Shown piece after piece: positions 21,801 to 53,740 of a stretch of DNA of 54,408 nt; the first letter of the stretch is position 1; each line of letters starts with the position of its first letter. Source of the DNA: Catajapyx aquilonaris (lineage: Eukaryota); contig JYFJ02002587.1 of the NCBI GenBank assembly GCA_000934665.2, positions 1 through 54,408 of the forward strand. The letters are read 5' to 3'. Position numbers and translations under genes: made by a program. The notes beneath the pieces were generated by a model. That model had not been told where the DNA came from and did no database searches. It worked only from the letters and a program-made list of their open reading frames with translations.

Positions 21801-22718
21801 TGAAAGCATGTCCTATATTACATTGTAAATGACTATGCAGCTATGCATATCTTGCTTTACACCTCTCTGTAGAGGGTTTGCATGTAACAGTAAATGAATT
21901 TATGATGCTAGTGGATCCAAGATGTAACATTCATAATATTGGCAGTTGGCCACCTCTGGCTGTATTTCAGATGCTCAAGTGCTGGTGAAATTGGGTGCAT
22001 GTTTGAGGGTATTACTGTATATTGTGAGTATTTTACAGTATCATACCAATTCGCCCAATGCACATATGCCTGATGCATGTTCACCTGATGACAACGTACC
22101 CAACAAAAATTCGCATGATGCAAACTCGCCCGATGCATGTGCACTCTTCATGGATTCCAGTCTTTCCTATCTTCTTTTTTCCTCTTCGTTTCTCCCTCCA
22201 TCTGTCCCATCTTTGCGTCTTCTTACAGCCAGATAGCCATAGTTGCTTTGGCTGCTTCCAAATAAACCAAACCAAACCCTGTCATTCCATATTATGGCAG
22301 TACGAGCTGCTACTGCATCGTGCATTGGGCGAACATCTATCAGGCAAATTCTCATCGGGCAACCGTCCATCGAGCGAACATGCATCGAGTGAACTGTGAT
22401 GGAACCATATTTTACATTACCAAAATTATGATTAGCGAAATTATGACGATGATATGAAAGAATTACATTTCACAGTAGGGTGGAGGGAAAAAAAAACGAA
22501 AGTTGTCTGATTAAATCGCACTGGGTGTCAAATGTTGTGCATTGACAATTGCAACACCGGTGAATTTTTTTAGAATTTTTGTACTTCATCTACATTTGTC
22601 GCCAGAGCCTTCGAGTTTCGCAATTTTGGCGAGAATGACACATATTACATTATGCAACACGATTTTTGTCCATGGAAATTCATCGCAATTTCCATGTTGG
22701 TTAGGTCACTGGTAACTC

Positions 22719-25700: not shown

Positions 25701-28700
25701 CCATGGAATTGCCCAGGAATTAAACTTCCCTAACTCGAAGTTCTCCATAACTCAAAGTGCTGGCAGGGCCTTACGATGGGATATCAATGCATTTTCAGTC
25801 TCTCTAACAGTAAGTCGAAGTTCACGTTGGCGAGTGCAGAAAATTTTCTAATTTCCTAGTCGAAGGGTCGAGAGTAGGCCACATGTATGGAAAGGCTCAA
25901 TTTCCTGACCTCCGTCTACCAGATGTACCGAAAGAAGTGTCTGACTCGATTGTGACAATTGAATCCTTGAATATAAGAGTAGGCAAATGTCCATAACAGA
26001 GTTTTTTAAAACATCAAAACAATGAGGAACTTTGTAAGTGTGATGGTGACAGTAATTTTTAAGTTTTGAACACCTTTTGTCACTGGATATAAAGGTAGGC
26101 TTCCTTATTGAGTTATATGCTTCAAAAAAGCCAAACTTCTCTAACTCGAATCTTCTATAACTCGAAGTTTTTTCCCGATCCCATGGAGATTCGACTTATA
26201 GAAGTTTTACTGTATTAATAACAATAAAAAACAGACATTTTGAAACACAAAACTTTTTTGTCATGTGAATGACCTTAAAAATATTCAAAAATCTAACAGG
26301 ACTTCTGCACATTCACTCTGAATTGGCTTACCTCATAATAGTACTCCATTGCAGCTTTCAAGACTTTCAGCTTCTTCCGTGTTGTTGTGAAGTCATGATT
26401 ATACCATCCATGAAATGCTTTCTGGAGTGAAACACAATTCAGTTATTCCAGGGGTGACTTAGGATAAAAATTACCAAATCATTTCAAGAAAACTTCATTC
26501 AAGCTAATATTCCAACTAACATGCTGAAAACCAACCAAATCCCTTCCAAACATAGATCAAGCTGAGTTTGAGCTCAATTAAAAGTCAGTAATATAGTTAT
26601 AGATGATATTGTTTATTATTAATACAATTACTGACTAGATAATATCACAGCATGAATGGCTATAATGACGTGCATTTTAAATGCTTCAAAAAATGATAAG
26701 CAGGTGATTTCAAGTTATGAGTGAAATTAAGAGTGCTGATCAGATAATGGGGCAAGGAAACAAGCACCCTCCAAGCCAGTTGCCCCCAGACGATGGTTCC
26801 CTTGTAAGTTTCAATGCTTGCAATGTAAATGCACAGGAAGTGAAACATTTCAATTTGCACCAAAACCATGCCGGTCTAAGGGCTTGGTGTCAGGTCACCA
26901 ATACTTGCACTTTACTTTGTTTGAATTCACAAGGTCAGAGGGCCCAAAAATGGTACCTTCATATTTTTCTTGTTTTGCCTGTCAGTGGCCTTGGAGCAGC
27001 CTGGCTTGGGTGATGGAAGTTCTTCAGCACTCAAATTGGGCACTTGGTCAGGCAACCCAGGTTCCTCTGTGGTGGTGGATCTCTGAGATGTGATGATCAT
27101 TTTGTTGTCAGAAACATCACATCCACCTCCTTTCAAAGCAAGACAGAGATTTTCTTTGTCTTCTGATTTTCCTGTCACATAAGTTGAGCAAAATTTTTCT
27201 TCTGGCTGTAAATAACAAAGTATAAAAGATCCAAATGTTGATGAGGCTCAATCATCTTGCAAGAAAATGGTGTCAAATGATAAAATTAGTTTCCTGACAA
27301 GATCTTTGAAAAAGACAACTACATTACCCAATTGAATCCAACAGATGGATGCCGGACATGTCTCTGAAGTTTGGAGAGCATCTATCATTAGATATTTCAT
27401 AGCCTTGCTAAAATAGAAACGGCAAACAACATACGGTATGGACATGAGGGTCACTACCACTATTGAACTGGCCACGTCAAGTTGCATTTTATTATAGCGG
27501 AGTGAAACCTGTGTACAGCTGCATAGCATGGGACATTAAAAATTTTCTGCATGTACAAGTTTCCGCTGTATTTGACATCATATTTTCTGTGAATTCTTTA
27601 CTGAGATTTTTTCCCCAGTGAGAAAGAGGAAAGGGAAAGGCAGGCCAACTAGCACATTATGGGTGACAATTTTCTGTGTCCCAAACAAGCCGTATCTCCA
27701 TTTCCCAGCCAATAATAATGCCCTTTTCTCACCAACCTGTCTTCAAGGTCATGGGGCCAAAGGCAATGCCAGCAATTATGAGACACACTGTGTCTAAAAG
27801 TTCACAACTGGAGCTTCTATTTTCGTGCCAGTGGCTGGCAGAAGACGTGAACATTTTCATCTCTTTTATCAGGAATTTTCTGTTACGGGAGACAAAACCC
27901 CTTTCTGTTTCCACATTGGGCAGGTTCCACTACACCTGTCAAAAATACATCATTGCATGACCCATGCATGCGCTTGTTTCCAGAAAATAATCTGCAACGG
28001 GCAGGTTTCCACTATACTCAGGGTCCGTTATGGTCAGGTTTCACTGTAATAACTTGCATCAGAACTACAGAACTATGCTTAAGCACTTCTAAAATGTCCT
28101 AATTAATATCTTGTTGAGCATTTTGTGGGCTAACAATGCCAATAAGTTGCTATACAGGACGTTGCCAAACTCAGGTTCTGCTGCAGCAAGGGCAGTGGTT
28201 AAGCGCATTGTTTTTGATTTATTCAACACTGGTTGCTAGGTGAAGTGACTTTCGCATAGGGCGCCTTGTTCGATTTTGCCAGGCGAACGGCGGCCATCTT
28301 GGAATAGCGGAACTAAGCAGCGAAAACATTGTTAAACTCAGCAAAGGTTGACCAATCAGCAAGCTCAGCAGTGCTGACAGCGGCTGAGTTTACAACGTCC
28401 TCATAGAAAACAATAACATTACCTTTACATCAATCTCATCTGCAGTGACCTTCAGGCCTCGTGAATGAGCAGATTGAAGCTCTTGCGAGAGATCCAACAT
28501 TCGTGCTCTAGCAGATGAGCGAGGTTCCTCTGCAGTACTTGGTTTCTTGGATATGATCAAAACTTCCTGATGACAGTGTTCAGGTGTGTGGCATTCAGCT
28601 CTTCCAGTTGGATAAACATATGTCCCTCTGCCCTCCAATTCTTCTGTCATATGAGTTGATGAAGTGGGGCTTTCTACCTGAAATTAAAATTTATGAAAAC

Positions 28701-36390: not shown

Positions 36391-39300
36391 CCAACCATGG
36401 TCTACCCAAAGAGCTTATACTAGGTATTAAGCTAGCCTAGTATTAAGCTCTTTGGGTCTACCTATCAGCATGGCACATTTTATGGGTGTCTCCCACATAA
36501 ATAATAGACATAGACTGAATATTACATTAATAAAATTTCAAAAATTTCAAATAGTTGCATGGCAATCAGTCCTCCATGCATCCTACAGAAAAAAAGGCTA
36601 TTTTATTACCAGGTTGTCATCTGAATTGTTGCTTTCCATTCTCTTTCGTGACCTCATGGGAGTGGATCTGCCTCTTGTGTGCAATCTCATGTGATTCTGC
36701 AGGGTTTCTTCCCTGGAAAAATGCTTATCACATTTTTCACACAGATATTTCTTCTGCAAATGAAGATGGTTTTCCATTCTGTGTTGTGCCATATGAAACT
36801 CTAGGCTCCTCTTCAGATAAAAAGCAGCGCTGCACTGATCACACTCAAATTCTGCTGATTGTGGTTGTGCTTGTTTGAGCCTCACAAACTGAGATTTCTT
36901 GCTAAACTTCACATTGCAGTCTGTTGAAGCCAATGTACCCGGATGCTCCACTTGCATGTGTGAATGCAAGGAAAATTTATCGGGACACTTGGAGCTGCAA
37001 AGACAACAGAACACTGTCTTTGTTTTGGTGCCACCTTTATCATCTGGTGTCTTGTTGCCATCTCGATGCTGAAGCAAATGTGTTCTCAGCAGTTTCCAAC
37101 TTGCTAAACATTGGTGGCACACACTGCATCTGAATTTTTTGCTCTTCTTGTGTGAAGACTGGAAGTGCCACTCAAGAGTGGGTTCACAAGCATAGCTTGC
37201 AAAACAGAGCTTGCATTTGAAAGGCTTTTCCTTAGGGTGTGACGTTATGTGAGCATTAAGAGTTCCCCAGTCACTGAATCTCTCTCCACACCACTTGTAA
37301 CGGCATGGAAGATGTCCTGCTGTTTTGCTTGCTGGGATGGGGTTTGGGGCAATCTCATCTCCTATCTGGAAATGCAAGGTAGGCTTTATTTTATGCTTAT
37401 TATTGAAATTTTAATGCATAGTATGTAATTTTAAAATGAAATCTGGTCTATAAAATGAAGTCCTACTTCACTTGCTAGTAACCTTCACATTTGTCTTACC
37501 TACTCAAAAAGCAAGAAATAAAATTTCAGAAACTAGATTCAGCTTCTTGATCTTGAAAATGATTTTTTATTCACACTGCACTGGTTGATTTAGAATTTCG
37601 TAAGTTGCTTGTTAATATTATATCATCAATTGCATTTTAACCTTATTTTATTAGGTCACGCATCTGCATTTTAGTTCATCGTTAGGGTTAACTTACGTCA
37701 CCTTTATCACTGACTAGTGACTATCCCCTCACAAGAATAATGTCATGATCACGAATGAATTAATGAATCCATGGATTTGGATCATATTTTGTGAGATGTT
37801 TACCATAGCTCTGGTTTATTACTAACAATTAATTTCATTGGAAAATGTGAAAACATTGTTATAAAATCCATGACCATTAAAAAAAAATAAATGAGAGTGG
37901 CATACCTCTTTTCCATCACTCTCCAAGCTGTAAAGAGTATTTCCAGAAGGGTCACATGTATCATCTCTTCTCAGTTCACTTGGAACTTGGCCAACAATCC
38001 TGCTTTGACCATCATGACTTTTCATGTGAACCTTCATGTAAAACTTTGAGCCAAAGCTCTTCATGCAAATTTCGCATTTGTGTTGCCTCTTCACACTTTT
38101 TGGATTTAATTGATGAACATTTTGTTTGGAATTTTCAACACCTTCAGAATTGGCCTTTTCATTCCCACCACGACCAGTGCCTGTGGAGTGCTCTACCCTC
38201 ACATGATTCTTCAGTTGAAGTGTGCTTGAAAATCTCACTTCACAATATCTGCATGCAAATGGCTTGTCGGCAGAGTTTTCCAGCCATTTAGTGCTCATGT
38301 TTCCTTCATGGTGAACCAGTGAATGCCGCATCATTGATTTTTTGTATTTGAATGCCTTGAAGCACCAGGGACATGCATAGCTTTTAGCATCCAACTTTGG
38401 TTTTAATATTCCATCTTCCTAGAACCAGAAAACTGAGAATTAGTGCACTGAATTGTGAGTGGTAGCAATGGGGTCATTGAACATTAGAATCGTAACTTAT
38501 TAGGCTTTGTGACTGTAACGTATTTGAAGGGAAAATTGAAGATTAGATGCGATAAATACCAGCCCCATACATGTTATGAATACCTCCTCATAATTCGAGT
38601 TGCCCTTGTGTTCATGACCCCTTAGCGCCCTTGTCTGCCTTGTGTAAGAATGTACCAGTCCCAGAGTATGGGCAAACACAGTGTGTCATCCCCAAATTTT
38701 GTATGGTGCAATGCACTGAGGGGAGCAAGGCAGAAAGTGAAATAAAGTGATTTTGATAAATGCTAAAGTAAAATCAATTTCCATCGAGTCTGTGATGCAA
38801 AATTGTACAGAATCAAGCTTGAGAAGTTGACTCTCAGTTGACTAGGCATCCTCTCATAGCAGACCCTATCGGGTTGTTTTTGTATGTATGTAGAAAAACC
38901 GTCTGACATTTCTGCATATTTACAATGGCATACTCTCACTCATGTGAGAAGACAGCACCAAAGCTGATGGAAATATCTTTTAAGAATTAATTAATGCAGT
39001 TTATAATTTAAAAACTTACTGAAATTTTTCAATGCAGCATTATGCAAGAGTTACACTATGTTGTCCAAAAACTTGATATCTCCCTTACAAAACAAATAAA
39101 CTGGACTAAATATTACCTCCGTAGAATGTGTATCCTTGTGAATATTCAACTGGTCCAAATGAGAATTCTTACACACCTTAAATAAGATTTCCTTGTCATC
39201 TGGTATTCCTCTCCAATCCCACATGTCTTCTTCATCTTCATCATGCCATGTCATGTGTGTCTCATAACCTTCCCTGTACTTGAACTTAGCATGGCAAACT

Positions 39301-40925
39301 CTACACTCAAATGCTCTCTCTGTAATTTCCTTATTCCTTGAAGGAAAAATGAATGGATCCAGCTGTTGCAAATGATAGAAATGGACATATGAATATGACA
39401 TTATTTGTTAGCTAGAGATAAAAGCTTACTCTGCAGTGATGAGGGTTGTCTTGTGCCTCCCCAAAGTGAGTCTTCAAATGATGAAGGTGAGAATATTTCA
39501 CTTGGGAAATGTGGCAAGTAAAATCCTTTTCAGTCATTGCCTTGCACTGATTTTTGGGCTCAGCCTGAAATGCATGAAGTAATTTCAATTAGTAAATTTG
39601 TGTGGTTCACATTTTCAATTTTGCAATTTCATGCTAGAACATTGTGCAATACAAGTAGTCTCTAACTACATTACAGGTGTTGAGTGGTGAATATCTCAAT
39701 AATACAAGGATGGATCTGTACAGTAAGCTGCCCCATTTAATTCTATGAATATGGTGACATAGGCTACGGTACGTAAAATGTGAATAATTCAACATGACCA
39801 TGGAACAGCCTGTTAAACGAAAGAACAATCTGACATCATCATTTTGTTTACCGACTCCTAGTTTACAGAGATCTGCCAAACGCACCTCTGGAACGTTCTA
39901 CTTTTCCTGTTCCCATGGATATATATGCTCTCACACAACAATATGAGCAAACATTGTTCATTTTTTGTTGACAATGTTTACTCCTATTGTTGTGTGAGGG
40001 CATCTCCATGGTAACTGGAAGGGTGGACGGTCAATTTTGCCGTTAGTAGTACATAGGATCACAACGAAAATATGTTGGGAATCACAGCTATCCTCCAAGT
40101 TAGAAGCTGATGGTCTCGCTGACTGGCCTGTTTTAAATCATTTTACAACTTACAACACAAATACCTCAGTCCACAAATTCCCAGTTCACAGGAGCAATTT
40201 ACAGTGAACGCCTGATCCAGAAATCCCTTTATTCACTTGGAAAAGATTTCCTGCTGAAACTTTATCACTCAAGGGAGGTGGCAGAATTTATACTATATTA
40301 GCAAGCAGCCGGAGGTCGAAAGACACATTTGCAATTATTTATGGCACTTGTTAGCATGTGTTTACTTTATATGGGGTTTGTATTTGTGACTACTTCCCCC
40401 ACAAGACTTACATTAACCCTCTTAACATGTTTGAAATAATTTTGTTCCCAGGCCCATCCCTACACACAAATGATGAACACAGGAACAAAAATTTGGAGAC
40501 ATATCTAATGCAGCTTAAATGCTTCTTCCTAAATCAGTAATATATTACTGATCAACAGAAACATGTTCAATACAGAAAAACTTTTGGGAATGGAGTGGGT
40601 CTGCTAAAAAGTGGTTTCACTGCATTTGTAAATGATAAATAGGTTACCTTGCTGATTACATTCTGATATGCTTCCTTCACACCTTCAGTGCATGTGGATG
40701 AATTCAGCTCTGAAGCACTAGAACAGCTGAAACTCTGAAGTACTCCAAGAAGAGCTTCAGAATAATAGTCTGCGGAATCATCTGCAACACCTAACTTAGG
40801 CATTTCTGATATAATTTCCCTTGCACCTTGGCAGCTCTCTCTTTTCATATCTAGAATTACAAGGTTCACCTCACTCGGCTCAACCATAGTTGCAGTCTGC
40901 ATCATTTGCTGCCGCTTTGTTGCAT
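35663..40925 (-). CDS. Unit A': multi-C2H2 zinc-finger coding exons (~10 intact fingers); long isoform of gene A or separate tandem paralog
   Basis: Exons 40925-40648 (phase-1 acceptor, in-frame ATG at 40905), 39564-39430 (degenerate finger), 39362-39117 (FECRVCHAKFKYREGYETHMTWH), 38418-37906 (3 fingers), 37365-36610 (6 fingers), putative terminal exon 35785-35663 (TAG). Internal junctions are phase 0 with GT-AG. The terminal exon is less certain; the ORF could instead stop at 36598. Confidence 0.75.
35962..36385 (+). mobile_element. tRNA-derived SINE, family 2
   Basis: A box TGGCCGAGATGG, B-box-like GGTTCTAATTCC, (AAAAT)n(AAT)n tail, 15-bp TSD ATAATCCAACCATGG at 35947 and 36386. Confidence 0.88.
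36407..36454. mobile_element. 48-bp P-like mini-MITE
   Basis: GGTCTACC|CAAAGAGCTTA...TAAGCTCTTTG|GGTCTACC: perfect 8-bp TSD; same CAAAGAG terminus as 15168. Confidence 0.75.
39891..40032. repeat. Hairpin repeat (CCATGG...CAACAATATGAG family)
   Basis: Palindrome; related sequences at ~28922-29010 and ~24392-24428. Confidence 0.65.
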
Positions 40926-43307
40926 CTGTGGGGAAGAAAACTCACTGTCAGTTAATTATGGTGAAAAAATGTACAGCTGATTGCATCAGGTTGGATACGT
41001 TAAGAAAGGGAAAACATCGCACTAAACTCATATATGACAATGCCGTGAAATAAATAAAAATTAAGCCAGCCTTTTCTGAGACTCTTTTGATACAGTACAG
41101 TATGCAACATATTTAATGGCACGTGGAAGTTGATATTTTAAACATTCAACTTATTGCAACCTGCCCCTAGTAGTGCAAAAATTACATGAATTACACAGTG
41201 CCACCATGTGCTACAATAAGGTTTGAAACATCAGCTGGCTGGTGTACGTGGCTTTAGTGCAGTCTGGAGGTAGCCAAACTGATGACATCAACACACTGCA
41301 AAACAGTCACAATTGCACAGCTGGTATTCTCTGGCAGGTCTGAATCAGTCCTTATCATTTACGCACTTGCCTAGTACTTGCCAAGGACGTATCTATGCAT
41401 ATGATGCTGGAGACAGCTGAAGGCAGCTCAAAGTACTCGGAAATATACCACTTCAGGAGGACGCCATTTTCACTTGGCAAGTTTCAGGGTGCTCTCTACA
41501 TCTGCGCAGAATGTGCGCCAAGGCTTTCATGTGCGCAGAAGGGGGAAACATGGGGCGATTGTAACATAGGTTACCCTGAACGTGGGGGGAAGTTTGAATA
41601 GGGAAATCGTCGTAATTATCACTGATTAAGCTCTCAAGAACCACAACACCTGACTCTCTTATCAACAACTGCATGGCCACCGGATTGGATGCATCCATAA
41701 TCAATTATGAGACTTCTAATACTTTATTGCAAACAAAAAAAGAATCCGCAAGTTACTACCATCATTCCTCAGTACAGTGATAATAACAATAATAATGATA
41801 TCAGCCATGACCATGATAACATAAAAAAACCTCAAGATGATTTGCAACTTCTTTGATACTGCAGGTTAATTGCAACTGCTGGTTACAGACGTTCCGTATA
41901 TCTTGAAAAACCACAAATTCCTTAGTTGGTAATGCCACTTGCATAATCAGGCAGTAACTTTTGTCAGGTGATCACATGATGCATGAGCAGGCTCTAATGA
42001 TTCCTTACAGGAAATGACTGCATCTAATGATGAGTAATCATGATCGGGTGTGCACTGGAAACAGGAGTGGACAGTGACATTGGCACTCACTTACAAGTCT
42101 CAGATTTGCTACATGACAATTATTATACATCTCTGGTCCCAGAGCACAAGAGCCTTCAAGGGCATTGTGACTCTAGGCAAAATCCTGTATGAGTATAATG
42201 TAAAAGGTACACAACAAGAAAATTATGAATGGAAGTCTAACAATTTCAGATGGTTAGCAATGCAGTGATCGATACCAATTTTGAGACGTTTCGTTTGTGA
42301 ATGTTTGAAAAATCCAGTAACTCTTAATTTGTTTGCCACTGTTTTGACTCAATGATAGTTACGCCACCTATGGGAGTGACAGGGAAAATAACCATTCCTG
42401 AGCATGCAACAAAATTCCATAAATGAAACAGACTGTTTGGACGTCGAGAAAATCAAAATATTCCTGCACATTCACCGTGACACTATTGAATTCGCATTCA
42501 TATCAGCAAAAATGTTGCACATGCTCATAAGTTACGTTGGCCCCCTAACTGCAACAGGGGAGTTACATGTGGGGAATAAAATTTTGGTTCTCTTGGCCAA
42601 CATGTCATTGGAGGGGCCTAGGAACTCAGGAACACCAGCGTTATGCAGGACAGTCAGTGAAATTCACTGAAACGAATGTGAACTCAATTATGAGAAGTAT
42701 ATAAGTTTAAATAAATAACAAATACTTTCAAGTGAACCTGCACTTCCAACAAAAGCAGTGCCACTGATGAACTGTTGGGCCTAAAAAGATGAAGACAATC
42801 CATCGTACAAGGCTCTAGCAGGATCACTGGAATACAGATAGATGTCCTTCTTCTGTACTATTACAGGCCTCAAGCATACATTATCGTCTGACATATGGCA
42901 CTGTTTCTTCACTTTGGAATAAAGACATTCCAGTTTTCCAGTGGAATGGAGCCATGCACTAAGAATCATTGGGCGGAATTTTTGTCCTACACTCGTACTG
43001 CTGTGTCAGCAGTAACTAGCAGTGGGACAAAAATTCCTCCCATATTCATTTTTTCAGCCTTGACAGTACAGGTTTATTGACCATCTAAAACAAAGATAAT
43101 AAAAACAAATCAGCTTTTCACCTGAAGCCAGCAGAACTGGTTGCAAATCCCCTTGACTCATATACATAAATGCAGCAAAATACAACACTTGCACTACACA
43201 TCACATGTCACCAGTCACATTCACAACAACATATTTTCCAAGTCGATCTTGTTCAGCAGTACACGTAACTGTGTATGTCATAATTTTATATTTTCTGCCT
43301 CCCTCTC

Positions 43308-46300
43308 TTATGTAGTAGTTTGTCCAGCATGCGAGGGCAAGCGCTCAAGCACTGCTGTAAGGTCTCTCCTCAGTCCTTTGACCTCATTGTACATGTCCTT
43401 GAAACTCTTCACATTCTGTTCAAACTCCTGGAAGTAATGCCTCATCTGTTGCCTGGCCACCTTAATTTCATGCGTGCCTTTCTCCATTGCAGATGCTATC
43501 CGATCCAGGTTTGGCCTCCGTTCCCCTTCTCCCCCCATGCGCAAGGATGCACCTGCATTCCAGTGGGTCCCATTCATCTCTTCCGTGTCGCCTGAAATGA
43601 GCAAGTGGGGATGCACATGATCAAGATGAAGTCAGATGCAGATGGGAAAAGGTTGCTGAGCCAAGGCACTTCCAAGTCACTCAATATGCCTAATCAACAC
43701 TGAAAGTCAAATATGTGATAGACATACCTACACATGTATTTGCTAGAATAAACAAACAACAGAAAAACATGTTGCCTTGTGAAAATTATGTACCAAATAT
43801 GAGCCAGAAAGCTATTTGAAAAGAGCACTAACGTAATGATTTACAAATTTTACACGGTTATAACTTCTTCCATCCCTCACCGTATGTCATTGCAATAAGG
43901 TCATAATAAGGATTGTAAGTTACTCACATCCACACATTTTGCATACCCAGACACTGCAAACACTGTCTATAAGGAACAAATGTGTATCCCTAAAACAGCG
44001 TCCATTAACTTATATTATGATAATCAAAAATTACTGTATTACGTCCCTTGGGCCCTCAAAAATTTGGCCTTGGTGAATCAGAAAAATGAATAGTTCTGGA
44101 CCCTTGGTATAATTTCCTATGACCCACTCTTGAGGGTGCATATGCTACAGGTTGGGAGCTGCTACAAAAACTTTCCACTAGGCATGGTGTTACTAATATA
44201 TCAGTTGTTTTTGTTATTTAAAATGTGCCATTTAAATCTATAACGTCAACCTTTAGAGCTGTTTATCCTCTATCAAAATAATGCTTCCATACCAGTAGGT
44301 ATGCACACAGTTATGTGGTCATATAATTAGGTTTGATTTGAAGCCTACATGCAGCACGTTCTTTTAAAAATTTGCACCCAGAAACAACAACGAAAAAAAA
44401 AAAAAAAGCCTTTCGCTTACTAGAAGGACTGTATGTGGCTTCGACTGGAATCTCTTCCGTGTCTGACATCTCTGAAGTGCCANTCTCTTCCGTGTCTGAC
44501 ATCTCTGAAGTGCCAGGAGAAGAAGCACTGCAAGCCTGAAGACAAAGGAGAGGATTTCATATTTAATATTCACTCTCTTGAACTCCCGTGAACATGAATG
44601 AATCTATACTTTGTTTAGAAAATTTTTGAAACTGTCAACTTGCCAATATAATTCTGTCACAACACTTATCAGTCATCTTCTTTGTCTCTCTTGACCTTGC
44701 CTACTCACCCTTACGACTCAATTTTTGAGACCTTGGGGCAAATTAGTAAATACATTAACAATAATAAAAACTACAAATCCTAGCTTACTTGAACGTGTCA
44801 GCCTTGAAGATAAACTTGCAGAGTGGTGCACTGCCTAACACCAAATTGTATTATTCATAGTAATTACAAAACGAGCCGTTGATCCACATTTTACATTGTT
44901 GTTAACATTTGGAACAATGCATATCAAGGATCAAACACTTCTTCAAGATTGACTGTCAATCATAAAACCCACCCTAAGTCAACAGTCCAACAGTGGTGGC
45001 AGGAAGGAATTTCGCCAGTAAAGACCTATTTTGCGGAATTTTTAAAGCAAGGAGTACAAAAAAGCTGAAATCTGCAAAAATTTTCGCTCAAATACAGTAG
45101 AACACCGTTTATCTGCCCTCAGATTATCCGACCGTCCCACTCCAGCAATAAATGTATGTTTTCTCATCAAATACTGTAATGCACGCATACTAATCATTTG
45201 TTTTTTATTGCCTTAGTTAAATTTTAAACCGCAGAGTGTGTATGTACAAGATAAATACTTTACCATTTCTCAGAAAAGCATAATATTGTACATTATTTCA
45301 TGTTTTTAATGCTTTTTGTTGTGTTTCCCTTCGCTCCTTGGATTATCCTATCTTTTCTGCTATCCGACAATGCCCCAGTCCTTTGGGTGACGGATAATTA
45401 ATTGGGGTTCTACTGTATTTGCAGTACTATTAACCGCAAAAGGAATGTCGCCCTGTTACGTGATGCCGTCTGCGACTTTTTGTTTATCCGCCTACCTGAG
45501 GGGGCACTGCCAGGTGCTGTGCGACATTACTTTTGTGGTTAACAGTACATAAAGTGTGATTCTTGCTAATGAAATGTGAAAACTCTACACAGTATCCACA
45601 TATTTTGTAGTAGACAACAGTAGAGCAGCTGAAAAGACTGCTTCCAAGATGTAAAATGCCACTTGCCCCAGTACAAAAGCAAGAATCATGACAAATATGG
45701 CCCTAATTGCTGCTTCCAATTGGTTACTACTCTTTAGCTTGGGTTAACAATCCACAACTTATTTACCCACCCTCTTCTTGAGCTGGGGACTTGGTCAGTG
45801 CACCATCCTGAAATAAGCTATATTACAATATTGTACTAGGGTTAAAGCGGAAGGGCTCAACTGCAGGAATCTGGGGGCATGAGCAACTGGGTTGGTGGTA
45901 TGGCAGATTGACTGCCATCAGCCGACACAGTTCAATATGCTCCCTGCTTCTTTGGACCCCACAATTGAGAATAGCTTGCATTTTCCAGATCCATGCAAAG
46001 TGGTAAGGAAAGAGAGAAAAAGAGGAAATTCGCATATTGTGCAGTGCCTGGGCAAGATAGTTACAGATGGTTGATCACATGCCAACAAAAAGTATTGCCA
46101 TGATTTTAGGTTGGTCACAAGGATCGTGGCATGGAATGCTTGGCAAGGTTGGCAGGCATTGTTTAGATTGATTGCGTTGCATGCTATACTGCCCCGCCCT
46201 GTTCACTATCACTCAAATGCAGTGAAACCTGTGTCTAGAGGAGTTGCACTACTGCACAAAAATTTTCTGCACTGAACAAGTTTAATGTATATGCAATGGA

Positions 46301-48969
46301 CCTCGGAAATCCTACTTAGGATAAGTTCTGTAATGAGCACATTTCCACTAAATGCAGTCTGTTATGCACAGGTTCATTCTCAACACATTCACAGTTCATT
46401 CTAAAAAGGGGCACTAACTGCTATGAATACTGCTATGAATATGTTTGCTTTTTTCCACGAAGAAAAAATGCTACACACCATGATTGTGTAAAATCTTCTG
46501 GCCAGCAACTCCATACCTTACAACACAGATGTGACTCTAAGCACTTAAATACTGTACTAGTGAATCCACATATTGCAGGATGGTCGAATTTGTGTATGTA
46601 CAAGTTAGTAACATCACACAATGTTAAGTAGAATGTTTAACTCATACCGCATTACTTAATTCTACCTAAAGCGACCCACCTTTCTGCCTGCAAGTCTGCT
46701 TGTCTTCCGCAGCTCCTCATCAGTCCACTTCATCAGCTTCATCATCCGCTCTTCCAGTGGCCACAATGAAATGGTCTTGTCATCCAGGTAGGCAGCAGCT
46801 CTAATCATTGTTGACCTCTTGAACTCATTCCAGACCTGTGGAGTTGGAAACATTGTAAAATAACCCTCTCAGTCTACTAGTGGTTTACACAAAATCATAC
46901 CTGTTGCCACTGTTCCGGGTTTCTCTTGGGACCTTCAGCATCATTGAGCTTCTCAGCTGCATCTGCCCACAAGTTATGCATGTCTGTTGCCAACATGTGG
47001 CCAACATGGCCAAGTGCCAGCATCGGGTTGGACTCCATGAAGCACACCATTGCCTCAAATTGGGCAGGAGAGGTCTGAACTGATTTGGCAGACTGTAGTG
47101 ATAGACCAGAAATTATTTATTGAGTTCCCGGGTAATTTTGGTACAACGTAGCAATGAATCTACGTGCAACAAAATGTCAAGAAAACATGAGATACGTTAA
47201 AATTATCTGTCACAGATGACATGAGTGTGTCCTCGCCTTATTTTTATGACTTATATTTTCTATTATTTCATTAACCATTAACGCTTTGGCCCCCAGCCAC
47301 CTAGAATCTATGCGATGAGAACTCGATACCTCAGTACCAGCTACTGTATACCGGCCATCGCCTAGTTTTCCGCTTACGCGTGCCTACTACTACTACTACT
47401 ACTACTACTACTGGACTGACCTTGACCCCATGAACTCTCATGTGTTGTTCCAGATGTTTTTGGAACATGAATTTCCTGGGACACACTTCACAGGAGAAGG
47501 GTTTGTCACTGGAAGAACTTGCTCCACCACCAGAACGGCCAACGTCGTCATGCCACGTCATGTGGGTATCATAGCCTTCTCTGTATCGGAACTTAGCATC
47601 ACATACGCCACACACAAACTTCATCTTGCTTGGCTTTCGGGGCCTTAGGGGGTCATAGTCAGGATCATTTGGATCCATGTATGTACCCGCATCGGGGTAC
47701 CTCTCTTCTAGACTGCGCTTTCTGCGGGAAGACTGATTAACAACATTAACCACTTGTTGACTGAAGTCAAAATATGACAAATATTTCCCAAAAGAGAGCA
47801 ACATTAACTAAATGATTTAATAAGTACATAATGATTAATTATGTTTACATAGAAAAGGCCATAACTAACCCCTCGAGGCGGCTGCTGCTTCAGCACCTGT
47901 GATGATGCACCAAGCTCAGTGGAGTGATGGGCATTCTTCATGTGCATCTTGAGGTAGTGGGAATTGGGGAAACGTTTAGCACAAGTTGGGCAACAGAAGG
48001 GTCGCTCTGAAGAGTGTGTCGACATGTGGATGTTCAGTCCCTGCTTGCTTTGGTACTCCTTTGCACAGGTGGGACACGAGTATGTGACTCTTGCAGGTGG
48101 GTTTGGGGTGAGTGACGGGGGAATTGGGACTCCAGCATGCATGTTTTGCATGTGTTTCTCCATGGCCTTCTGGTACTTAAAAGTCTTCCCACACACCGGG
48201 CATGCTCCAACAATCTCGCTAGCTGAGCGGCTCTTACGTGGTTTTTTTTCCATTTGACCAAACTGGAATAGGGAAGAAAAGCTAGGATATAAACTAATCA
48301 AACAAAATCTTCCCACATCATAGTGCAATTTATTAAATTGATTACTAATAAATTTAACATATAATGAAGTTAATACCTCATAGGCAGCACCACATTAATG
48401 TGTCATTGATCTCTAACGCTACCTTGTATCCCAGTTCTGTACGTGACATATTTTGCACTACTGCCCCCTTCATATAGCTATTTTAGTGTCTGAGATACAT
48501 ATTTGCAACTTAAGACTGTGCCATTATTTATTGGTTCTAAAGGGTTGGTTCAGGTACTGAGCCATCAACAGGTGTAGCGGTATGTAATTTTTTATCATAC
48601 ATTGCTTCCCAAATATCGATGACATACCTCATTTCTTTGCTCCAGGATATGGACATCCTCCTCTCCTTCCGAGGAGAGCTCTTCTGTATCGGAAGCTTCA
48701 CTTCGGCTATTGGCTGAAGCATATTTCATCACCTCCGACACAGCCCGTGAATAGAATCCAACTGACTGAATCTCTTCCACTTCATTGTCATCGTCTTCCT
48801 CCAACTTGGTCACATCCTTATCCGAAGTGTCTGATTCATCGTCAGTCAATTCCATCTGGTGCCCGATGTAATTTACTTCAGCACTGGCAGCACCTAGATG
48901 GTTCAGCTGCGCTACCGTCACAGATGTTCCGCTCGGCATGGCCAAAGTACTCTTGCTTGCGTCTGCCAT
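43308..48969 (-). CDS. Gene A: multi-exon C2H2 zinc-finger protein with Myb/SANT-like (MSANTD-type) DNA-binding domain and C-terminal coiled coil, ~590 aa
   Basis: Phase-consistent GT-AG exons: 48969-48628 (ATG, acidic MADASK...QRNE), 48262-47870 (3 fingers, CPVC/CPTC/CPTC), 47732-47421 (2 fingers), 47092-46901 (SAKSVQTSPAQFEAMVCFMESNPMLALG...LWADAAEKLNDAEGPKRNPEQWQQ; absent from ORF track), 46835-46680 (VWNEFKRST...LWPLEERMMKL), 44535-44421, 43591-43308 (LDRIASAME...stop). Exon lengths sum to 1794 nt, in frame. Confidence 0.8.
45095..45415. mobile_element. pogo/Tigger-like MITE
   Basis: TA|CAGTAGAACACC...GGGGTTCTACTG|TA with TATCCG subterminal motifs. Confidence 0.8.
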
Positions 48970-49199
48970 TTTTCTGTATAATGAAATGTCCATACAGTGT
49001 GCTATAATGACAAAATTGTCATTTTGAACCAATTGCATACGAACGGAACTTCAGCTTAGTATTATATCAGGCCTCTATTTCTTATCTGGTGCATTCCCTA
49101 CCATGCTCAATTACTTCTTACACTCATTGTATGTATGTCTGTTGTTTTAACCAGTCTGTCACCAACGGACAACACAGTTTAACCCCAAATTACCAACAA

Positions 49200-50200
49200 T
49201 CGTGCATCCCACTTGCATCTGATTAGCTTTCTCCAACTGTGAACCTCGAATTTTTTAAAGGAATAATTATAAAGGATGACTAACCCCGCCCCAAAAAGTG
49301 AGACCCACCCGTCTCAAACGATGGCCGAAAATTGATTCACATACTGCCGATTTTTTTTTATACATAAAATCCTGGATGCAGCGGAATCCATACCTCTTCA
49401 AACGAGGGGCGGGCGGACACGGGGCAGGTCGGGCAACCTGGTGCACTCCTGGGCACTCGAGCCAGCGCACAACTTTAAAGCCGTTATATCGCCATTTTTA
49501 TAATGCAAAATTTTAATGAACAAAACCGACGCTCAATATGGACGACTGGTCGCGTCCGAATAGACAAGGATGCACACGTGGCCTACGCAGTCTGCTCTCT
49601 TTCCGCAAGTTCCACCGCTTATAAGTAGTCAACATCTATCAACATTAATTCACCACAATTTAATTGATTACATTAGCAAAATATTTAAGACACTATTGAA
49701 CGTTTAACTGGGGTAAAGCATGGCGACTTAGTAGTTAGCAAGTGCGGACACAGCCGGATTAATATGTTGGCACTTTAATGAATCAAAATTGTCATTTTAA
49801 ATATCATAATTAATTATATCAATTTAATTTACTGTCCATGAGGTTATAGACACCGTGATTGACTGGTGTCAAGCATGTCAACTTCACATATGCGGAAGCG
49901 GCGTCTCATTAGCACTTGAGAACTTGACAGCTCAAACCCGGTTCAAACTGAAACTGGGAGAGAAAATTCCAATTAAATGTTGCGTTAGACGTATTCGTCC
50001 CAAATGGAATATTACGTGATGCACTGCAACTATAAAAATTGATGTAATTATCGGCCGAATGACGACACATTCCTTCCAGAATGTCCGACGTGGACGGCGT
50101 GCGCAATTGGAGTTAATTTTATTTCATGCGAGTGCGGCGCGTCATGTTCTTCAAATCATCTGAATTTTCTTGACATTTAAATTGGCAGTTCATGCAAGGT
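49200..50200. promoter_or_regulatory. Putative bidirectional promoter / 5' UTR region between genes A and C
   Basis: Lies between divergent ATGs (48969 minus, 50471 plus), both just after splice acceptors, so non-coding first exons should lie here. Visibly CpG-enriched versus the gene bodies; no recognisable repeats; CGGAAG at ~49893 and ATGGCG at ~49720. Confidence 0.6.
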
Positions 50201-50470
50201 TCATGTGTGATTTATATTACGATAGTTGATCACCAAATGACTGCAGCATCTGTCTTCTGAAGGTGCACTTGCTTACAGGCCCTGGAGAGGTTCGTATATG
50301 TACTGTATTGAATGATTGAGACTTCACACTAAGTTATATATGGAAAAGGAGGTGGAATGTAAAAAAAAAAGAGTGTCAATTTCTCATATTTGGTCCACTG
50401 CAACTACCTGTAACTTAAGTACAAATGTGGGTAATCCTGAAACCGTTGACAATTGGTCTTCCCTCAGCAG

Positions 50471-52490
50471 ATGAGCCTGTTCAAAATTGAGGTTGTGGAG
50501 GAAGCTGAAGAAGAGACAAGCACATTTGAGGACTGCAATGACAATGCGGTTGTTAAGCAGGTGGTCTGGGATGCTGACTCCATGCAGGAAATGATGGGGT
50601 CTGAGGTGGCGGAGAACGATCAGTACCCAGTGGAGGACATGCAGAGCTCCCCGCTTGGCAGTGTCCCATGCGGAGATGTGGACGGCATACTTAGGACTAG
50701 GGCGAAGGTATTCGATCTCTTATGCGGCACCCTGAAACTGGGATTAACACCAGTGCCTGTCTGGATTAGGTTCCAAAAGTCAGCTTGACGAATGGCAGGA
50801 GCATCCAGTCATCTATGCGAGCACTGGCCAGCAGATCTGGTAGAAAGACATTTCCATGTACGCACTGTGGAGATGTGTTCCTGACAGAAGGCGTGCTCAG
50901 CATGCATCTCTCCAGCCACAACCAGAAGCTTGTTTGCAAGAGGAGATGGGAGGAGAGCGAGAAAGGAAGCTCAGATGATGGGCAGGCCTCCTCTGGACTT
51001 GTGGATGATGGAAAGGTTTCACCAAAATGTGTGCCAATGCCAAGAGGTATGAGAGGGTGATTTTGTGATGTTATAGTCCGCATGCAGGAAGTTTCTAAAT
51101 TTAAAGAAATTGTGATTTATCCCCCCTCCTCTAGGGATGAAGCCATTTCGTTCTCGACGTCCAAACTGGGGCTCCGATGAGATTGAAGCCCTTCTTTCAA
51201 TGATGGAGTTAAACTTACCTTTGACTACAGGAAACCTATCTCAGCATCTGCCCACCCCTGCAGCAATGCGCAAGGCCTGGGAAAAAGTGGCCATGGGAGT
51301 TAACATGGTCTCACGTCATGGGAGGAGTGGAAATGAAGCGAGGGACAAATGGGTCAATCTCAAAAGCTCTGTAGGTCCATGCTTTCTGGACGTGACTTTT
51401 CAAAATGTGGCGATTAAAAATTGTGTCAAATACACAGATAATGCATGCTATTTGTGAACATGGGTGCATTAGTATTTTCTATTGAATTCATATGAAGTCA
51501 AGCTAGAGGCATTTTCAGAAGATGTTTTGTATGAACTAATTAGTAGCCATTTCTGGCAGAGTAAAATTAAGGCGTCAGCAATGAAGCTGGGTGGTGGGTG
51601 CAAATCCAGTCAGGCTCTGACTCCAACCGAAGAGAGAGTGCTGTCCATCTTAGGGATGGAGATGAATGAACCTGAGGCAATCCCAAGTGAGGATGGTACT
51701 GAATCAGAAGAGGTGAACATTACTTCCAATGTGTCAGAAGATACCAGCAGGACAACAGATGCAATGTAAGTTGACAGAAACCTATACTTATATGAGGTGC
51801 AGTATGTAATGAATAATGCACAAGGATTTCAAAGAGGATGTGACAAATATTATTCCTCCACAGGGCTTCTAAAGCAAGAAAAGAAGCCCCAAGTGTTGTA
51901 CAACCTGCAAGACAAACAAATCATAGCGGTAGGCACACAAATGTTATCACATTCAAAAGCAATGAATTTAGTTTTCAAGTCTTTCATGCACAATATTCTT
52001 GCCAGATATGATGAATGATACCTCATATCTTGCAGGCCTAAAGGAAACGAGGCATCTAAAGAGAGAGCGATTGTTTCCTGGATGCCGGCAGATGCCAAAG
52101 GTAAATTTCCCATTTTTTGTACCCTTCAGCTGTGATTTACAATGCTTTTTGCTTATCTTATTCATACATGTAGAGGAAGTACAGTACATTTATTTAGCTG
52201 ACATGATGGTTATTAGTTACATAAGTATTGTAAAAATATGAATTTATAATGAAACTGAATACTCCTGCTAGGCAGTGCGTCACATTCTGGCCACCCGTCG
52301 CAGCATGGCAACAGTTGCTGAATTGCTGCGTAACCAGTCTCAGGAGATCAAGAGGATTCGGGAGATTGGGGAGCAGCTGCTGGAAGTGAGCCAGGCCAAG
52401 CTGGAAATGGACAGGAGGAGGTTGGCCATTGAGGAAGAGAAGATGGAGATGGACAAGGCAGCCATAAGGGCAAAGTTTTTAATGATGTGA
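50471..52490 (+). CDS. Gene C: C2H2 finger + Myb/SANT-like DNA-binding domain + coiled-coil protein (MSANTD/NAIF1-like architecture), ~411 aa
   Basis: Exons 50471-50707, 50770-51046 (FPCTHCGDVFLTEGVLSMHLSSH), 51135-51370 (RRPNWGSDEIEALL...RKAWEKVAMGVN...RSGNEARDKWVNLKSS), 51560-51765 (LTPTEERVLSILG), 52036-52100, 52276-52490 (LEMDRRRLAIEEEKMEMDK, TGA). Phases 0,1,0,2,1 are consistent; total 1236 nt. Confidence 0.82.
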
Positions 52491-52856
52491 TGAGACATGT
52501 AATTGTGTGTGGTATGAATTTCAGCTGATAAATGAAGACCATTTTAAACTACTGCATTTAACCAGCTGGCATTTAGTGTTGAGTAATATATCTTGCAGTT
52601 AGTGTTTCCTATTATGGATAATTTCTGAGCCAGAAGAAATCTCAGCCCAAGGCTGCACCGCTTGTGGGGTTATAAAATGAATTGTGGATCTCATAAAAGT
52701 GATGGGGGGGAAAAAAGAGTTACTTTGTGCACAGTACATGACTGTTGTGATAGCCTTTCAAGTCATTAAATGCTTGTTCAAAGAGGATATTCACAAGTTG
52801 TGTTTTAGTCACTTCCTCGACCTGGCTAGATTAGTGTTATCCTGCATTCTTCAATA

Positions 52857-53740
52857 CTAGTAGTGAACCTGTTGCCAAATTTTGGCAATACTGACTGTCT
52901 CCCCCCACTTGGACATAGTACGATAGGATAGGCCACTACCAGTTGGTGCATAGACATTCCCTCTGCACACTAGTGCTGCTGTGGCACTCTCAGGGGGAAT
53001 GTAGTACTACATGCACATTGGTGATGAGTCACAGCATGGACGAAGCTCACCAGGGCAGTCTTGCCTCCGTTGAAGTGTGTCCCAAGTTGGTACACACTTG
53101 GTTGGAACTCCGTCTGCCATAGAGAGTGAGTCTGTTGTGTCGTGCCATTATTGAACGGGGAAAGTGATAACCATAAAACCATGTGAGAACTATGGTAACT
53201 AACAACTAAGTGCACCTAGGAGCTAGGACATAGGTGACAAGTCAACACTCTTAGAGACGGAGTCGCATCTAGCAAATTCTGAACATGATGCAGAGGATCA
53301 TTCTGCTAGGTAAATTATCAGCCATGAGAAGGATTAAACCCCTAGGTGAATTATTATTAGCCACGAGTAAAATTAATCTATTTGGTGAATAAATTATTAT
53401 CTATGAGGAGGACTCTCTCTCTGGGATTAATCTGCTAGGTGAATTATTCTCCACTAGTAGCAGAGCCATTGCCAAATTTTGGCAACACTACTTGGCCCAC
53501 CCCCCAACTTGGACATAGTAAAATAGGACACTGCCAGTTGGCGCATAGGCTCTCCCTCTGCACACTCCTGCCCCTCTCAGGGAGAAAGTAGTACTGCATG
53601 CACGTTGGTAATGAGTCAGTGCAGTGTGCCCAAGTCCACCAGGGCCCTATACTACTTTCTCCATTAACAATTAAAGGACAGAAGTTAAATCTATGGTAAC
53701 TACTATCTACGCAATGAGTAAACTTATTTACAGTGTGGAG
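52857..53740 (-). mobile_element. Two diverged tandem Helitron-like copies
   Basis: Direct repeats starting at CTAG 52857 and 53454, each followed ~15 nt later by the palindrome TTGCCAAATTTTGGCAA (a minus-strand hairpin + CTAG 3' end); ~200 bp of shared sequence; 5' ends undefined. Confidence 0.6.

Follow-up and report, generated by a model that had tools for sequence, protein, structure and literature searches.

In Drosophila, proteins that combine C2H2 zinc fingers with Myb/SANT-like (MADF) domains and are encoded in gene clusters have already been described (PMC11229372, PMC12774644). One of them, Mzfp1 (CG1603), with cluster neighbours CG1602 and CG1605, carries an acidic and a basic MADF domain; the acidic one is proposed to serve protein contacts and the finger array to bind DNA. 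Heterodimers of this family form mostly within clusters, via a lone finger, and the CGx-hydrophobic family of the Mzfp1 type is described there as confined to Diptera (PMC11229372, PMC12774644). In KRABINER-type fusions, a DNA transposon inserted in a zinc-finger gene has its coding part spliced to upstream host exons; the words Harbinger, PIF and Myb are absent from the main text of that paper (10.1101/2020.05.07.082677). So far, the fullest record of capture by splicing concerns vertebrate transposases. In vertebrates, NAIF1 and MSANTD1-4 are domesticated Harbinger Myb genes, and MYPOP, ZSCAN20, PRDM11 and TSNARE1 are putative ones (PMC9392472).

We analysed a window of 54,408 nucleotides (positions 1 to 54,408 of contig JYFJ02002587.1 of Catajapyx aquilonaris), where an original prediction had placed two head-to-head genes, each fusing C2H2 fingers to a Harbinger-type Myb/SANT-like domain and a coiled coil. 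The pair is real: genes A (minus strand) and C (plus strand) are divergent neighbours with spliced, in-frame models in which all introns are GT-AG. Both are intact and single-copy, with next genome matches at 35% (A) and 42% (C), and both are expressed as spliced transcripts in one public RNA run (X1). All RNA evidence comes from this run, of unrecorded type and analysed as contigs; its joint table lists at least 15 joints, and two joints were dropped at repeats. Each gene probably joins zinc fingers to a DNA-binding module from a Harbinger element, by captures that were probably two and separate. The case is a new local example of an already known route for building regulators, and, of known systems, host-transposon fusions and the C2H2-MADF proteins of the Mzfp1 type in Drosophila come closest, rather than the ZAD/KRAB families.

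As Mzfp1 and its relatives are described, A and C resemble them in joining fingers and a Myb/SANT-like domain in one protein, in the clustering of the genes and in the contrast between acidic and basic domains. However, A and C carry PF13873, not the MADF family PF10545 (no hit in either), and one Myb domain per protein; their fingers are N-terminal and precede the Myb domain, unlike the MADF domain before a C-terminal finger cluster, a putative coiled-coil tail lies at the C-terminus, and the acidic and basic domains stand on two divergent genes. They thus parallel the fly architecture with different parts. We also considered a CGx-hydrophobic dimerising finger in C and rejected it, since none of the six A/C fingers has the strand in its 12 preceding residues. 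In KRABINER-type fusions, as reported, the transposase was captured, mostly behind KRAB and in tetrapods, whereas here the Myb partner gene would have been captured and the fingers kept. The locus would extend transposon capture by splicing to the Harbinger Myb partner gene, in an invertebrate-type zinc-finger cluster.

Like the listed vertebrate genes, A and C are probably Harbinger-derived Myb/SANT-like host genes without a neighbouring nuclease, but those do not form a divergent pair and the best database matches of A and C reach just 35-46%. ZSCAN20 also bears C2H2 fingers. The co-domesticated insect pair DPLG7-DPM7 likewise shows a PIF/Harbinger Myb-like gene turned arthropod host gene; as described, this type pairs a nuclease with a Myb gene, whereas A and C are both Myb-derived with no nuclease near, and the terms zinc finger, C2H2 and fusion are absent from the main text of that paper (PMC9710019). 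The ZAD, KRAB and FiNZ families share with A and C lineage-specific clustered finger genes and an acidic first exon, but are described with an N-terminal effector and hundreds of members, against a C-terminal module and only three finger-Myb genes or candidates here (PMC10547256). The proposed analogy to ZAD or KRAB systems therefore fits poorly, since the Myb-coiled-coil part lies at the C-terminus and a single further finger-Myb candidate among 59 other Myb stretches means no expanded effector family. For fusions of C2H2, PF13873 and coiled coil in a divergent pair, no report was found among the open-access texts searched.

Gene A encodes 597 aa with no internal stop and gene C 434 aa, each from seven coding exons (Table 1), and the predicted common domain order was confirmed. 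LWPLEER lies at residue 437 of A and LTPTEER at residue 270 of C. These LxPxEER motifs and the coiled coils do not tie A to C: LxPxEE-type motifs and C-terminal coiled coils are also found in other PF13873 proteins and are thus family traits. In a crude heptad test, 1 of 200 shuffles scored as high as the tail of A and 50 of 200 as high as that of C, which is not above shuffles. The test supports the coiled coil of A and not that of C, whose charged helical tail is a probable coiled coil. To the tail of A the atlas assigned no family (recognition 1734). The idea of added zinc-finger specificity suits A, with five fingers, but poorly to C, whose one finger is weak (zf-C2H2_4, E=0.0032, 18.5 bits, under the 27-bit cut-off).

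Table 1. Features of genes A and C and of the interval between them (positions in the window)
Feature	Position	Strand	Evidence or remark
Gene A coding exons	48969-48628, 48262-47870, 47732-47421, 47092-46901, 46835-46680, 44535-44421, 43591-43308	-	GT-AG
Gene A 5' UTR exon, may reach further upstream	49394..49485	-	RNA joint 48973-49394, CT..AC
Gene A exon 1 with start codon (ATG at 48969), acidic N-terminus	48628..48973	-	25% D+E; RNA joint
Gene A exon 2, C2H2 fingers 1-3	47870..48262	-	zf-C2H2 E=6.3e-14; exon 1-2 RNA joint; donor predicted
Gene A exon 3, fingers 4-5	47421..47732	-	zf-C2H2 E=1.4e-8; acceptor chosen for phase
Gene A exon 4, Myb/SANT-like domain up to the first part of helix 3	46901..47092	-	acidic, without basic N-terminal arm
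Gene A exon 5, rest of helix 3, LWPLEER motif	46680..46835	-	exon 4-5 RNA joint
Gene A exon 6, acidic linker, probably alternative	44421..44535	-	phase fits; skip joint in RNA
Gene A exon 7, coiled coil, stop	43308..43591	-	heptad test; start of record 3 (43591)
Gene A 3' UTR, covered part	41804..43307	-	record 3 spans 43591-41804, zero differences
CpG-rich interval, candidate bidirectional promoter	49486..50086	.	CpG o/e and contig ends
Gene C coding exons	50471-50707, 50770-51046, 51135-51370, 51560-51765, 51864-51928, 52036-52100, 52272-52490	+	GT-AG
Gene C 5' UTR exon	50087..50289	+	GT..AG joint to 50471; start inferred from 203-letter side and bin depth
Gene C exon 1, acidic N-terminus	50471..50707	+	24% D+E; RNA; donor predicted only
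Gene C exon 2, single C2H2 finger	50770..51046	+	joined to exon 3, 170 letters this side; acceptor predicted only
Gene C exon 3, complete basic Myb/SANT-like domain	51135..51370	+	PF13873; RNA joints both sides
Gene C exon 4, LTPTEER motif and acidic linker	51560..51765	+	model and RNA joint
Gene C exon 5	51864..51928	+	model and RNA joint
Gene C exon 6	52036..52100	+	model and RNA joint
Gene C exon 7, charged helical tail	52272..52787	+	stop at 52490; 3' UTR to at least 52787 (record 6)

The genes do diverge from a spacer of about 1.5 kb (1501 nt from ATG to ATG), as had been stated, but this spacer is not empty: it holds two spliced 5' UTR exons, and the contig 5' ends, at 49485 (A) and about 50087 (C), lie about 600 nt apart, an upper bound under 1 kb. 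The 5' UTR exon of A is covered by 92 letters of record 5, with a bin depth that fits 92 x 9.73, and that of C contains no in-frame upstream ATG. CpG o/e is 1.23 over 49300-50200 vs 0.52 for the whole window and 0.45 and 0.38 in the gene bodies. With the spacing of the 5' ends, this makes co-regulation of A and C plausible.

Both domains were assigned to the Harbinger-type Myb family as predicted, C by Pfam and A by weaker scores. C exon 3 matches PF13873 with E=1.4e-7 (31.8 bits, cut-off 21.7). In A, where a Myb hit had been expected over 47092-46680, exons 4 and 5 scanned separately against Pfam gave none; exon 47092-46901 alone escapes detection because an intron splits helix 3. Other approaches point to it: the atlas assigns Myb_DNA-bind_5 to exon 4 (0.93), and an own-genome Myb profile scores it weakly, at 9.8 bits vs 6.1 for the best of 500 shuffles. 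The three nearest Myb relatives of A pass the PF13873 cut-off. A model of the domain, built on an alignment of Myb relatives, has a pLDDT of 79.8, and its fold search places the Zeste DNA-binding domain first, as a weak match that an unrelated chain equals (E=0.86, Z=5.6; rmsd 3.5 across 60 residues). The two domains contrast in charge: the pI of A exon 4 is 5.0 vs 10.7-11.5 in its three nearest relatives, and that of C exon 3 is 10.5. Net-negative Myb domains number 4 of 77.

The account that we favour, with moderate confidence as a whole, is that A and C are expressed chimaeras of host exons and Harbinger Myb genes, arisen by two captures and dividing the labour between them. The host part of each would be the acidic start and the C2H2 finger exons, spliced onto the element's Myb-linker-coiled-coil gene. 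Most likely, two different PIF/Harbinger elements would have inserted into one zinc-finger cluster, their nucleases and terminal repeats having since been lost, and one short CpG-rich promoter region would drive A and C outwards. Both proteins would act as chromatin-binding regulators, most likely with opposite assignments: C would bind DNA by its intact basic Myb domain and use the lone finger as a contact module, and A would bind DNA by its finger array, with its acidified Myb domain given over to protein contacts, in the manner of Mzfp1's MADF1 in Drosophila. Splicing of exon 6 would yield A with or without the coiled coil.

A and C fall into different Myb subfamilies. Ten own-genome rows group with C (support 83/79), A groups with L095, L107 and L079 (93/96), and the two genes are joined in just 4% of 200 bootstrap trees. 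The tree excluded P0001, a repeat protein and top database match, as well as Myb hits below 30 bits or 50 residues; L107 entered by hand. The Myb intron differs as well, with each position common to different genomic relatives: in A, L095, L107 and L079 a GT lies at the same position inside helix 3, and in C and nine inspected relatives after helix 3. These different subfamilies and intron positions suggest two captures. These differences, together with N-termini that cannot be aligned and a fusion phase of 0 in A vs 1 in C, make it unlikely that a single finger-Myb fusion underwent an old inverted duplication, leaving A and C as diverged paralogues with a shared ancestral promoter. Such a history would fit the identical domain order, the head-to-head layout and the 22% similarity between A and C (153 columns, E=7e-6), and sisterhood was not rejected by an AU test on 78 columns (p=0.144). 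Should the two captures be independent, the same protein layout would have arisen twice within 5 kb, pointing to a favoured route.

Finger exons had been predicted to be joined to Myb exons in RNA. For C this holds directly, by joint 51046-51135 on a 1260-nt contig reaching the 3' UTR, and host and transposon domains thus lie on separate exons within one transcript; at least 6 of 7 predicted C joints are among the joints listed, exon 1-2 being absent. For A, at least 3 of 7 are among them (5' UTR-exon 1, exon 1-2 and exon 4-5), and joints 2-3, 3-4, 5-6 and 6-7 are absent; we infer the finger-to-Myb joint (exon 3-4). The depth of the exon 4-5 bin is fully explained without overlaps at the exon 4 acceptor, which is expected, indirectly, if the contig continues into an upstream exon. 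Mean depth counts against this joint, with 4.35 over exon 3 vs 7.7 over exons 4-5. It could be read, like the end of record 5 exactly at the exon 1 donor as at a branch point, as a sign that locus A comprises two units or alternative transcripts, namely a gene with fingers alone, made of exons 1-3 and perhaps running on into gene B, and a Myb gene to which exon 1 skips, with C as the sole true fusion. Phase 0 is shared by the donors of exons 1, 2 and 3 and the acceptor of exon 4, and gene B has no CpG-rich promoter of its own, as this reading would want. We nevertheless hold it to be quite improbable: exons 1-2 are joined in RNA, exon 3 is stop-free up to its donor, 328 nt from the in-phase exon 4 acceptor, and this donor lies 3 nt from a repeat where joints were dropped.

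One unpredicted A joint, from exon 5 to exon 7, skips exon 6 and gives a form of 470 aa without the coiled coil. It is the sole listed joint into exon 7 and leaves the coiled coil out of frame, which is in frame only when exon 6 is included. Depth remainders near 4.2 in three bins point to such inclusion. Exon 6 contains a 33-nt duplication around an N (repeat D1). No RNA cover was seen in X1 at 41470-41803, a hole that proves nothing.

The genome holds 61 PF13873 and at least 153 PF13359 matches. As predicted, no nuclease was found in the window: none of the PF13359 matches lies on the locus contig (C1244; DDE_Tnp_4, 150 of 214 candidates scored), and local DDE profiles found no nuclease gene there. 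An initial profile built on 5 seeds proved too narrow, recognising 2 of 60 stretches; of the 9 positive with its widened version, 8 had served as seeds, drawn from the PF13359 matches. No high-identity inverted repeat encloses either Myb cassette. In the C group, 3 of 10 rows (L069, L074, L075) have a DDE gene in convergent orientation no more than 3 kb away, and copies of L074 show 98.6% and 91.5% DNA identity. For the three nearest relatives of A, the 10 kb fetched contained no DDE gene, so that the transposon origin proposed for A is one by family only. A close described ortholog was not found, in line with the original prediction, the best matches being 35-46% over about 73 residues; word-based homologue searches gave no match for the C Myb exon among 20 candidates or for the A finger 4 region among 8, and an alignment search one 145-aa PF13873 protein among 8000 candidates, all weak negatives. 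That the Myb domains came by exon shuffling from long-domesticated host factors of the Zeste/MYPOP/NAIF1 type, with no direct element capture here, is very unlikely: it would suit a window without terminal repeats or nuclease, annotated millipede and scorpion host proteins among C's best database relatives (40-46%) and the 51 of 60 fetched stretches without a DDE gene, but a young multicopy family with a convergent nuclease belongs to the C group, and no ortholog-level match was found.

Beyond the favoured account of two captures at this locus, a wider and decidedly speculative reading is that finger arrays of this lineage captured Harbinger Myb genes repeatedly, A and C being two such captures and a co-transcribed two-part factor, in which A would supply fingers and a protein-contact Myb domain, C the DNA-binding Myb domain, and tail pairing would be switched off by exon 6 skipping. 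A complex prediction of the A and C tail exons scored 0.01 (mark 0.34; controls not folded), which counts neither for nor against such pairing. If repeated capture were true, each step of the route would be represented in the genome: L073, L074 and L078 would be a young element family, L069 a complete element within an array, L072 and L090 Myb genes that lack a nuclease and follow array start exons, and L082, A and C finger-Myb fusions. How MADF/Myb-finger regulators arose has so far been argued mainly from similarity; as the genome seems to hold intermediate stages, the question would be directly testable here. Myb genes do lie behind zinc-finger-family start exons in arrays at L069, L072 and L090. 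Myb loci adjoin zinc fingers in 7 of 59 cases vs 0 of 28 controls (28 fetched of 40 planned), which is not significant (p=0.09). Homology of the acidic first exons of A and C to the genome's array start exons was rejected, with no match to a start-exon profile, and no Pfam domain was found in either first exon. Finger 4 of A is a copy of a finger in the adjacent zinc-finger gene B (63% identity to 39237-39326), its sole other match in the genome among 34 candidates.

The minus-strand gene A and the plus-strand gene C, a divergent pair, are real and expressed, C as a finger-Myb chimaera and A as a probable one. Each is single-copy in an assembly of 285.6 Mb (20,583 contigs), of which the window is one entire contig. 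The models comprise seven coding exons each, with GT-AG introns and no internal stops, and encode 597 aa with five fingers (A) and 434 aa with one finger (C). They belong to a C2H2 cluster, with the ten-finger gene B directly downstream of A and further fingers at 12869-13306. Of the domains originally predicted, Pfam detected the fingers of A (E=6.3e-14 and 1.4e-8) and the Myb_DNA-bind_5 domain (PF13873) of C (E=1.4e-7), but neither the Myb exons of A, scanned one by one, nor the lone finger of C, which scores below the cut-off. The spacer of about 1.5 kb measures 1501 nt from ATG to ATG, but it contains one 5′ UTR exon and an intron for each gene, and the 5′ contig ends, at 49485 (A) and about 50087 (C), are separated by about 600 nt. 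CpG o/e reaches 1.23 between these ends, compared to 0.52 window-wide and coding-exon values of 0.45 and 0.38. A CpG-rich interval amid CpG-poor genes is what an unmethylated promoter flanked by methylated gene bodies would be expected to show.

Expression was examined with spliced contigs from one RNA run of unrecorded type, giving a list of at least 15 joints that excludes two at repeats. Among the joints listed, six of seven predicted for C are present, and a single 1260-nt contig that begins within its finger exon crosses the Myb exon and reaches the 3′ UTR. Joining of finger and Myb exons in RNA was thus observed for C, but for A no such joint is among those listed; the donor concerned is only 3 nt away from a repeat left out of the listing. 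Three of seven joints of A are listed (UTR-exon 1, exons 1-2 and exons 4-5). The depth of the exon 4-5 bin is fully explained without assuming that contigs overlap at the acceptor of exon 4; this would follow if the contig continues to an upstream exon, which we infer. Mean depth is 4.35 in exon 3 versus 7.7 in exons 4-5. An extra joint links exon 5 to exon 7; skipping of exon 6 shifts the frame, giving a 470-aa protein that lacks the coiled coil. For exons 5, 6 and 7, the contig-depth remainders per bin (4.17, 4.15 and 3.1-5.2) are those expected for a second transcript path through exon 6, and suggest its existence. Exon 6 would then control the tail of A.

The Myb-like nature of A exon 47092-46901 is supported by several approaches. 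Its first four atlas matches are PF13873 clusters (0.91-0.93, recognition 3259), and in tblastn three PF13873 loci match the exon with E values between 9e-5 and 0.03. Spliced A scores 9.8 bits on helices 2-3 with a profile made from 22 other loci of the same genome (best of 500 shuffles, 6.1). A structural model derived from aligned Myb relatives (pLDDT 79.8) has the Zeste DNA-binding domain as top, weak match in two fold searches (E=0.86; Z=5.6).

Genome-wide, we obtained 61 PF13873 matches (89 candidates scored) and at least 153 matches to PF13359, the PIF/Harbinger DDE nuclease family (150 of 214 candidates scored). None of the PF13359 matches listed is on the window contig, in agreement with the earlier remark that no HARBI1-like nuclease is visible. 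The 60 other PF13873 matches fall in 59 of the 60 stretches, each 10 kb at most, that we examined. A DDE gene is present in 9/60 (eight being seeds from the PF13359 search) versus 0/28 control stretches.

Two separate Myb captures are favoured over other readings, as the best, still unproven, account. In a tree of 77 Myb domains (78 columns), A clusters with three own-genome relatives, L095, L107 and L079 (support 93/96). The group of C (83/79) comprises ten own-genome rows plus six database proteins. A and, as predicted donors, its three relatives carry a GT at the same point within helix 3; in C and, as predicted donors, nine relatives inspected, it follows helix 3. A convergent nuclease lies less than 3 kb away in 3/10 own-genome rows grouped with C, one of which, L074, exists in further copies with DNA identities of 98.6% and 91.5%; none of A's three nearest Myb relatives faces a nuclease. 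A union of A and C appears in 4% of 200 bootstrap trees and is left unrejected by the AU test (p=0.144). The LxPxEE-type motif (LWPLEER in A, LTPTEER in C) and coiled-coil tail, predicted as common to both, recur in Myb relatives and database matches, and therefore do not link A to C. In a crude heptad test the coiled coil passes for A (1/200 shuffles as high) but fails for C (50/200). No terminal repeats enclose either Myb cassette. Finger 4 of A is 63% identical to a gene B finger, its only other match among 34 candidates, which makes the host part of A local cluster material.

C2H2 fingers occur near 7/59 Myb stretches versus 0/28 controls (p=0.09). In L069, a Harbinger Myb gene with a convergent nuclease sits inside a tandem finger array, flanked by an acidic start exon on one side and the following finger exon on the other, possibly a capture intermediate. 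Two nuclease-free Myb genes, L072 (G000:C290) and L090 (G000:C8243), stand behind exons matching the array acidic start exon, and L072 DNA is 68-77% identical to the young L074 element family. L082, whose Myb subfamily differs from those of A and C, is by sequence a candidate third finger-Myb fusion. Neither A nor C has a first exon that fits the array start-exon profile.

With a pI of 10.5 and an arginine-rich arm, the Myb domain of C is basic; the base-contacting positions of the lone C finger are T, G, V and M. Exon 4 of A has a pI of 5.0 (4 basic, 8 acidic residues), and its three nearest relatives 10.7-11.5; 4/77 Myb domains are net negative, two of these being truncated rows. Fingers 2 and 3 of A are closely linked. 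For Drosophila Mzfp1, the finger cluster is described as sufficient for specific binding, with the acidic MADF proposed to recruit complexes (PMC11229372), and the Harbinger3_DR Myb protein as binding a subterminal motif and its transposase (PMC9710019). From this charge contrast and these precedents, DNA binding would be directed by the fingers in A and by the Myb domain in C.

A and C represent a variant of two kinds already described, host-transposon fusions and C2H2-MADF factors, and their finger-Myb layouts are probably convergent. For vertebrate transposases, transposon exons are reported spliced into finger genes (10.1101/2020.05.07.082677); ZSCAN20 is a putative Harbinger Myb derivative (PMC9392472), and MADF genes are regarded as likely PIF-derived (PMC10027918). 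Fly C2H2-MADF genes are clustered, heterodimers forming chiefly within clusters (PMC12774644); A and C share clusters and fingers with this family but lack the upstream strand that defines it. The proposed ZAD/KRAB-type analogy is a poor fit to A and C: in the KRAB and FiNZ families, whose members number in the hundreds, the effector exon is N-terminal (PMC10547256). A full-library search with the C Myb exon returned 17 proteins (35-46% identity, none above 304 aa) and no ortholog; of ten looked up, three are named proteins, from a millipede, scorpions and mussels.

For gene B, RNA shows 4/7 joints among those listed. Its predicted ATG is 106 nt beyond the point where the contig of the A 3′ UTR ends. 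Upstream of gene B there is no CpG-rich promoter, o/e being 0.28-0.45 at 40-43 kb, and the gene may therefore be transcribed from the A promoter.

Coordinates of neighbouring features in the window and of Myb-holding stretches elsewhere in the genome
Position	Strand	Feature	Description
12869-13306	-	Additional zinc-finger exon	Four fingers
21501-21812, 26927-27247, 28390-28683		Acidic frames	Possible upstream exons of at least one gene, going with finger exon 12869-13306; no Pfam match
41698-35400	-	Gene B	705 aa, ten C2H2 fingers
42970-43042		Short hairpin repeat, A 3′ UTR	21-nt arms, 31-nt loop; matched by many unrelated contigs
44451-44515		Tandem copies, A exon 6	Exact 32-nt copies flanking an N; looks like an assembly overlap; repeat of 33 nt, frame kept either way
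45089-45421		MITE-like insertion, A intron 5	23-nt inverted ends, CpG-rich relative to surroundings
52843-53645		Diverged tandem duplication	About 590 nt, downstream of C
G000:C170:8100-18099		L069	Myb gene in finger array
G000:C170:58700-68699		L056	Myb gene antisense between two finger exons of opposite strand
L082:3846-5990 (G000:C1209)		L082	Acidic one-finger exon, phase-compatible PF13873 exon, coiled-coil-like tail
L107:4817-6000 (G000:C4238)		L107	A-related Myb domain right behind, on the same strand as, a gene presumed from its translation to be histone H4, in a histone cluster
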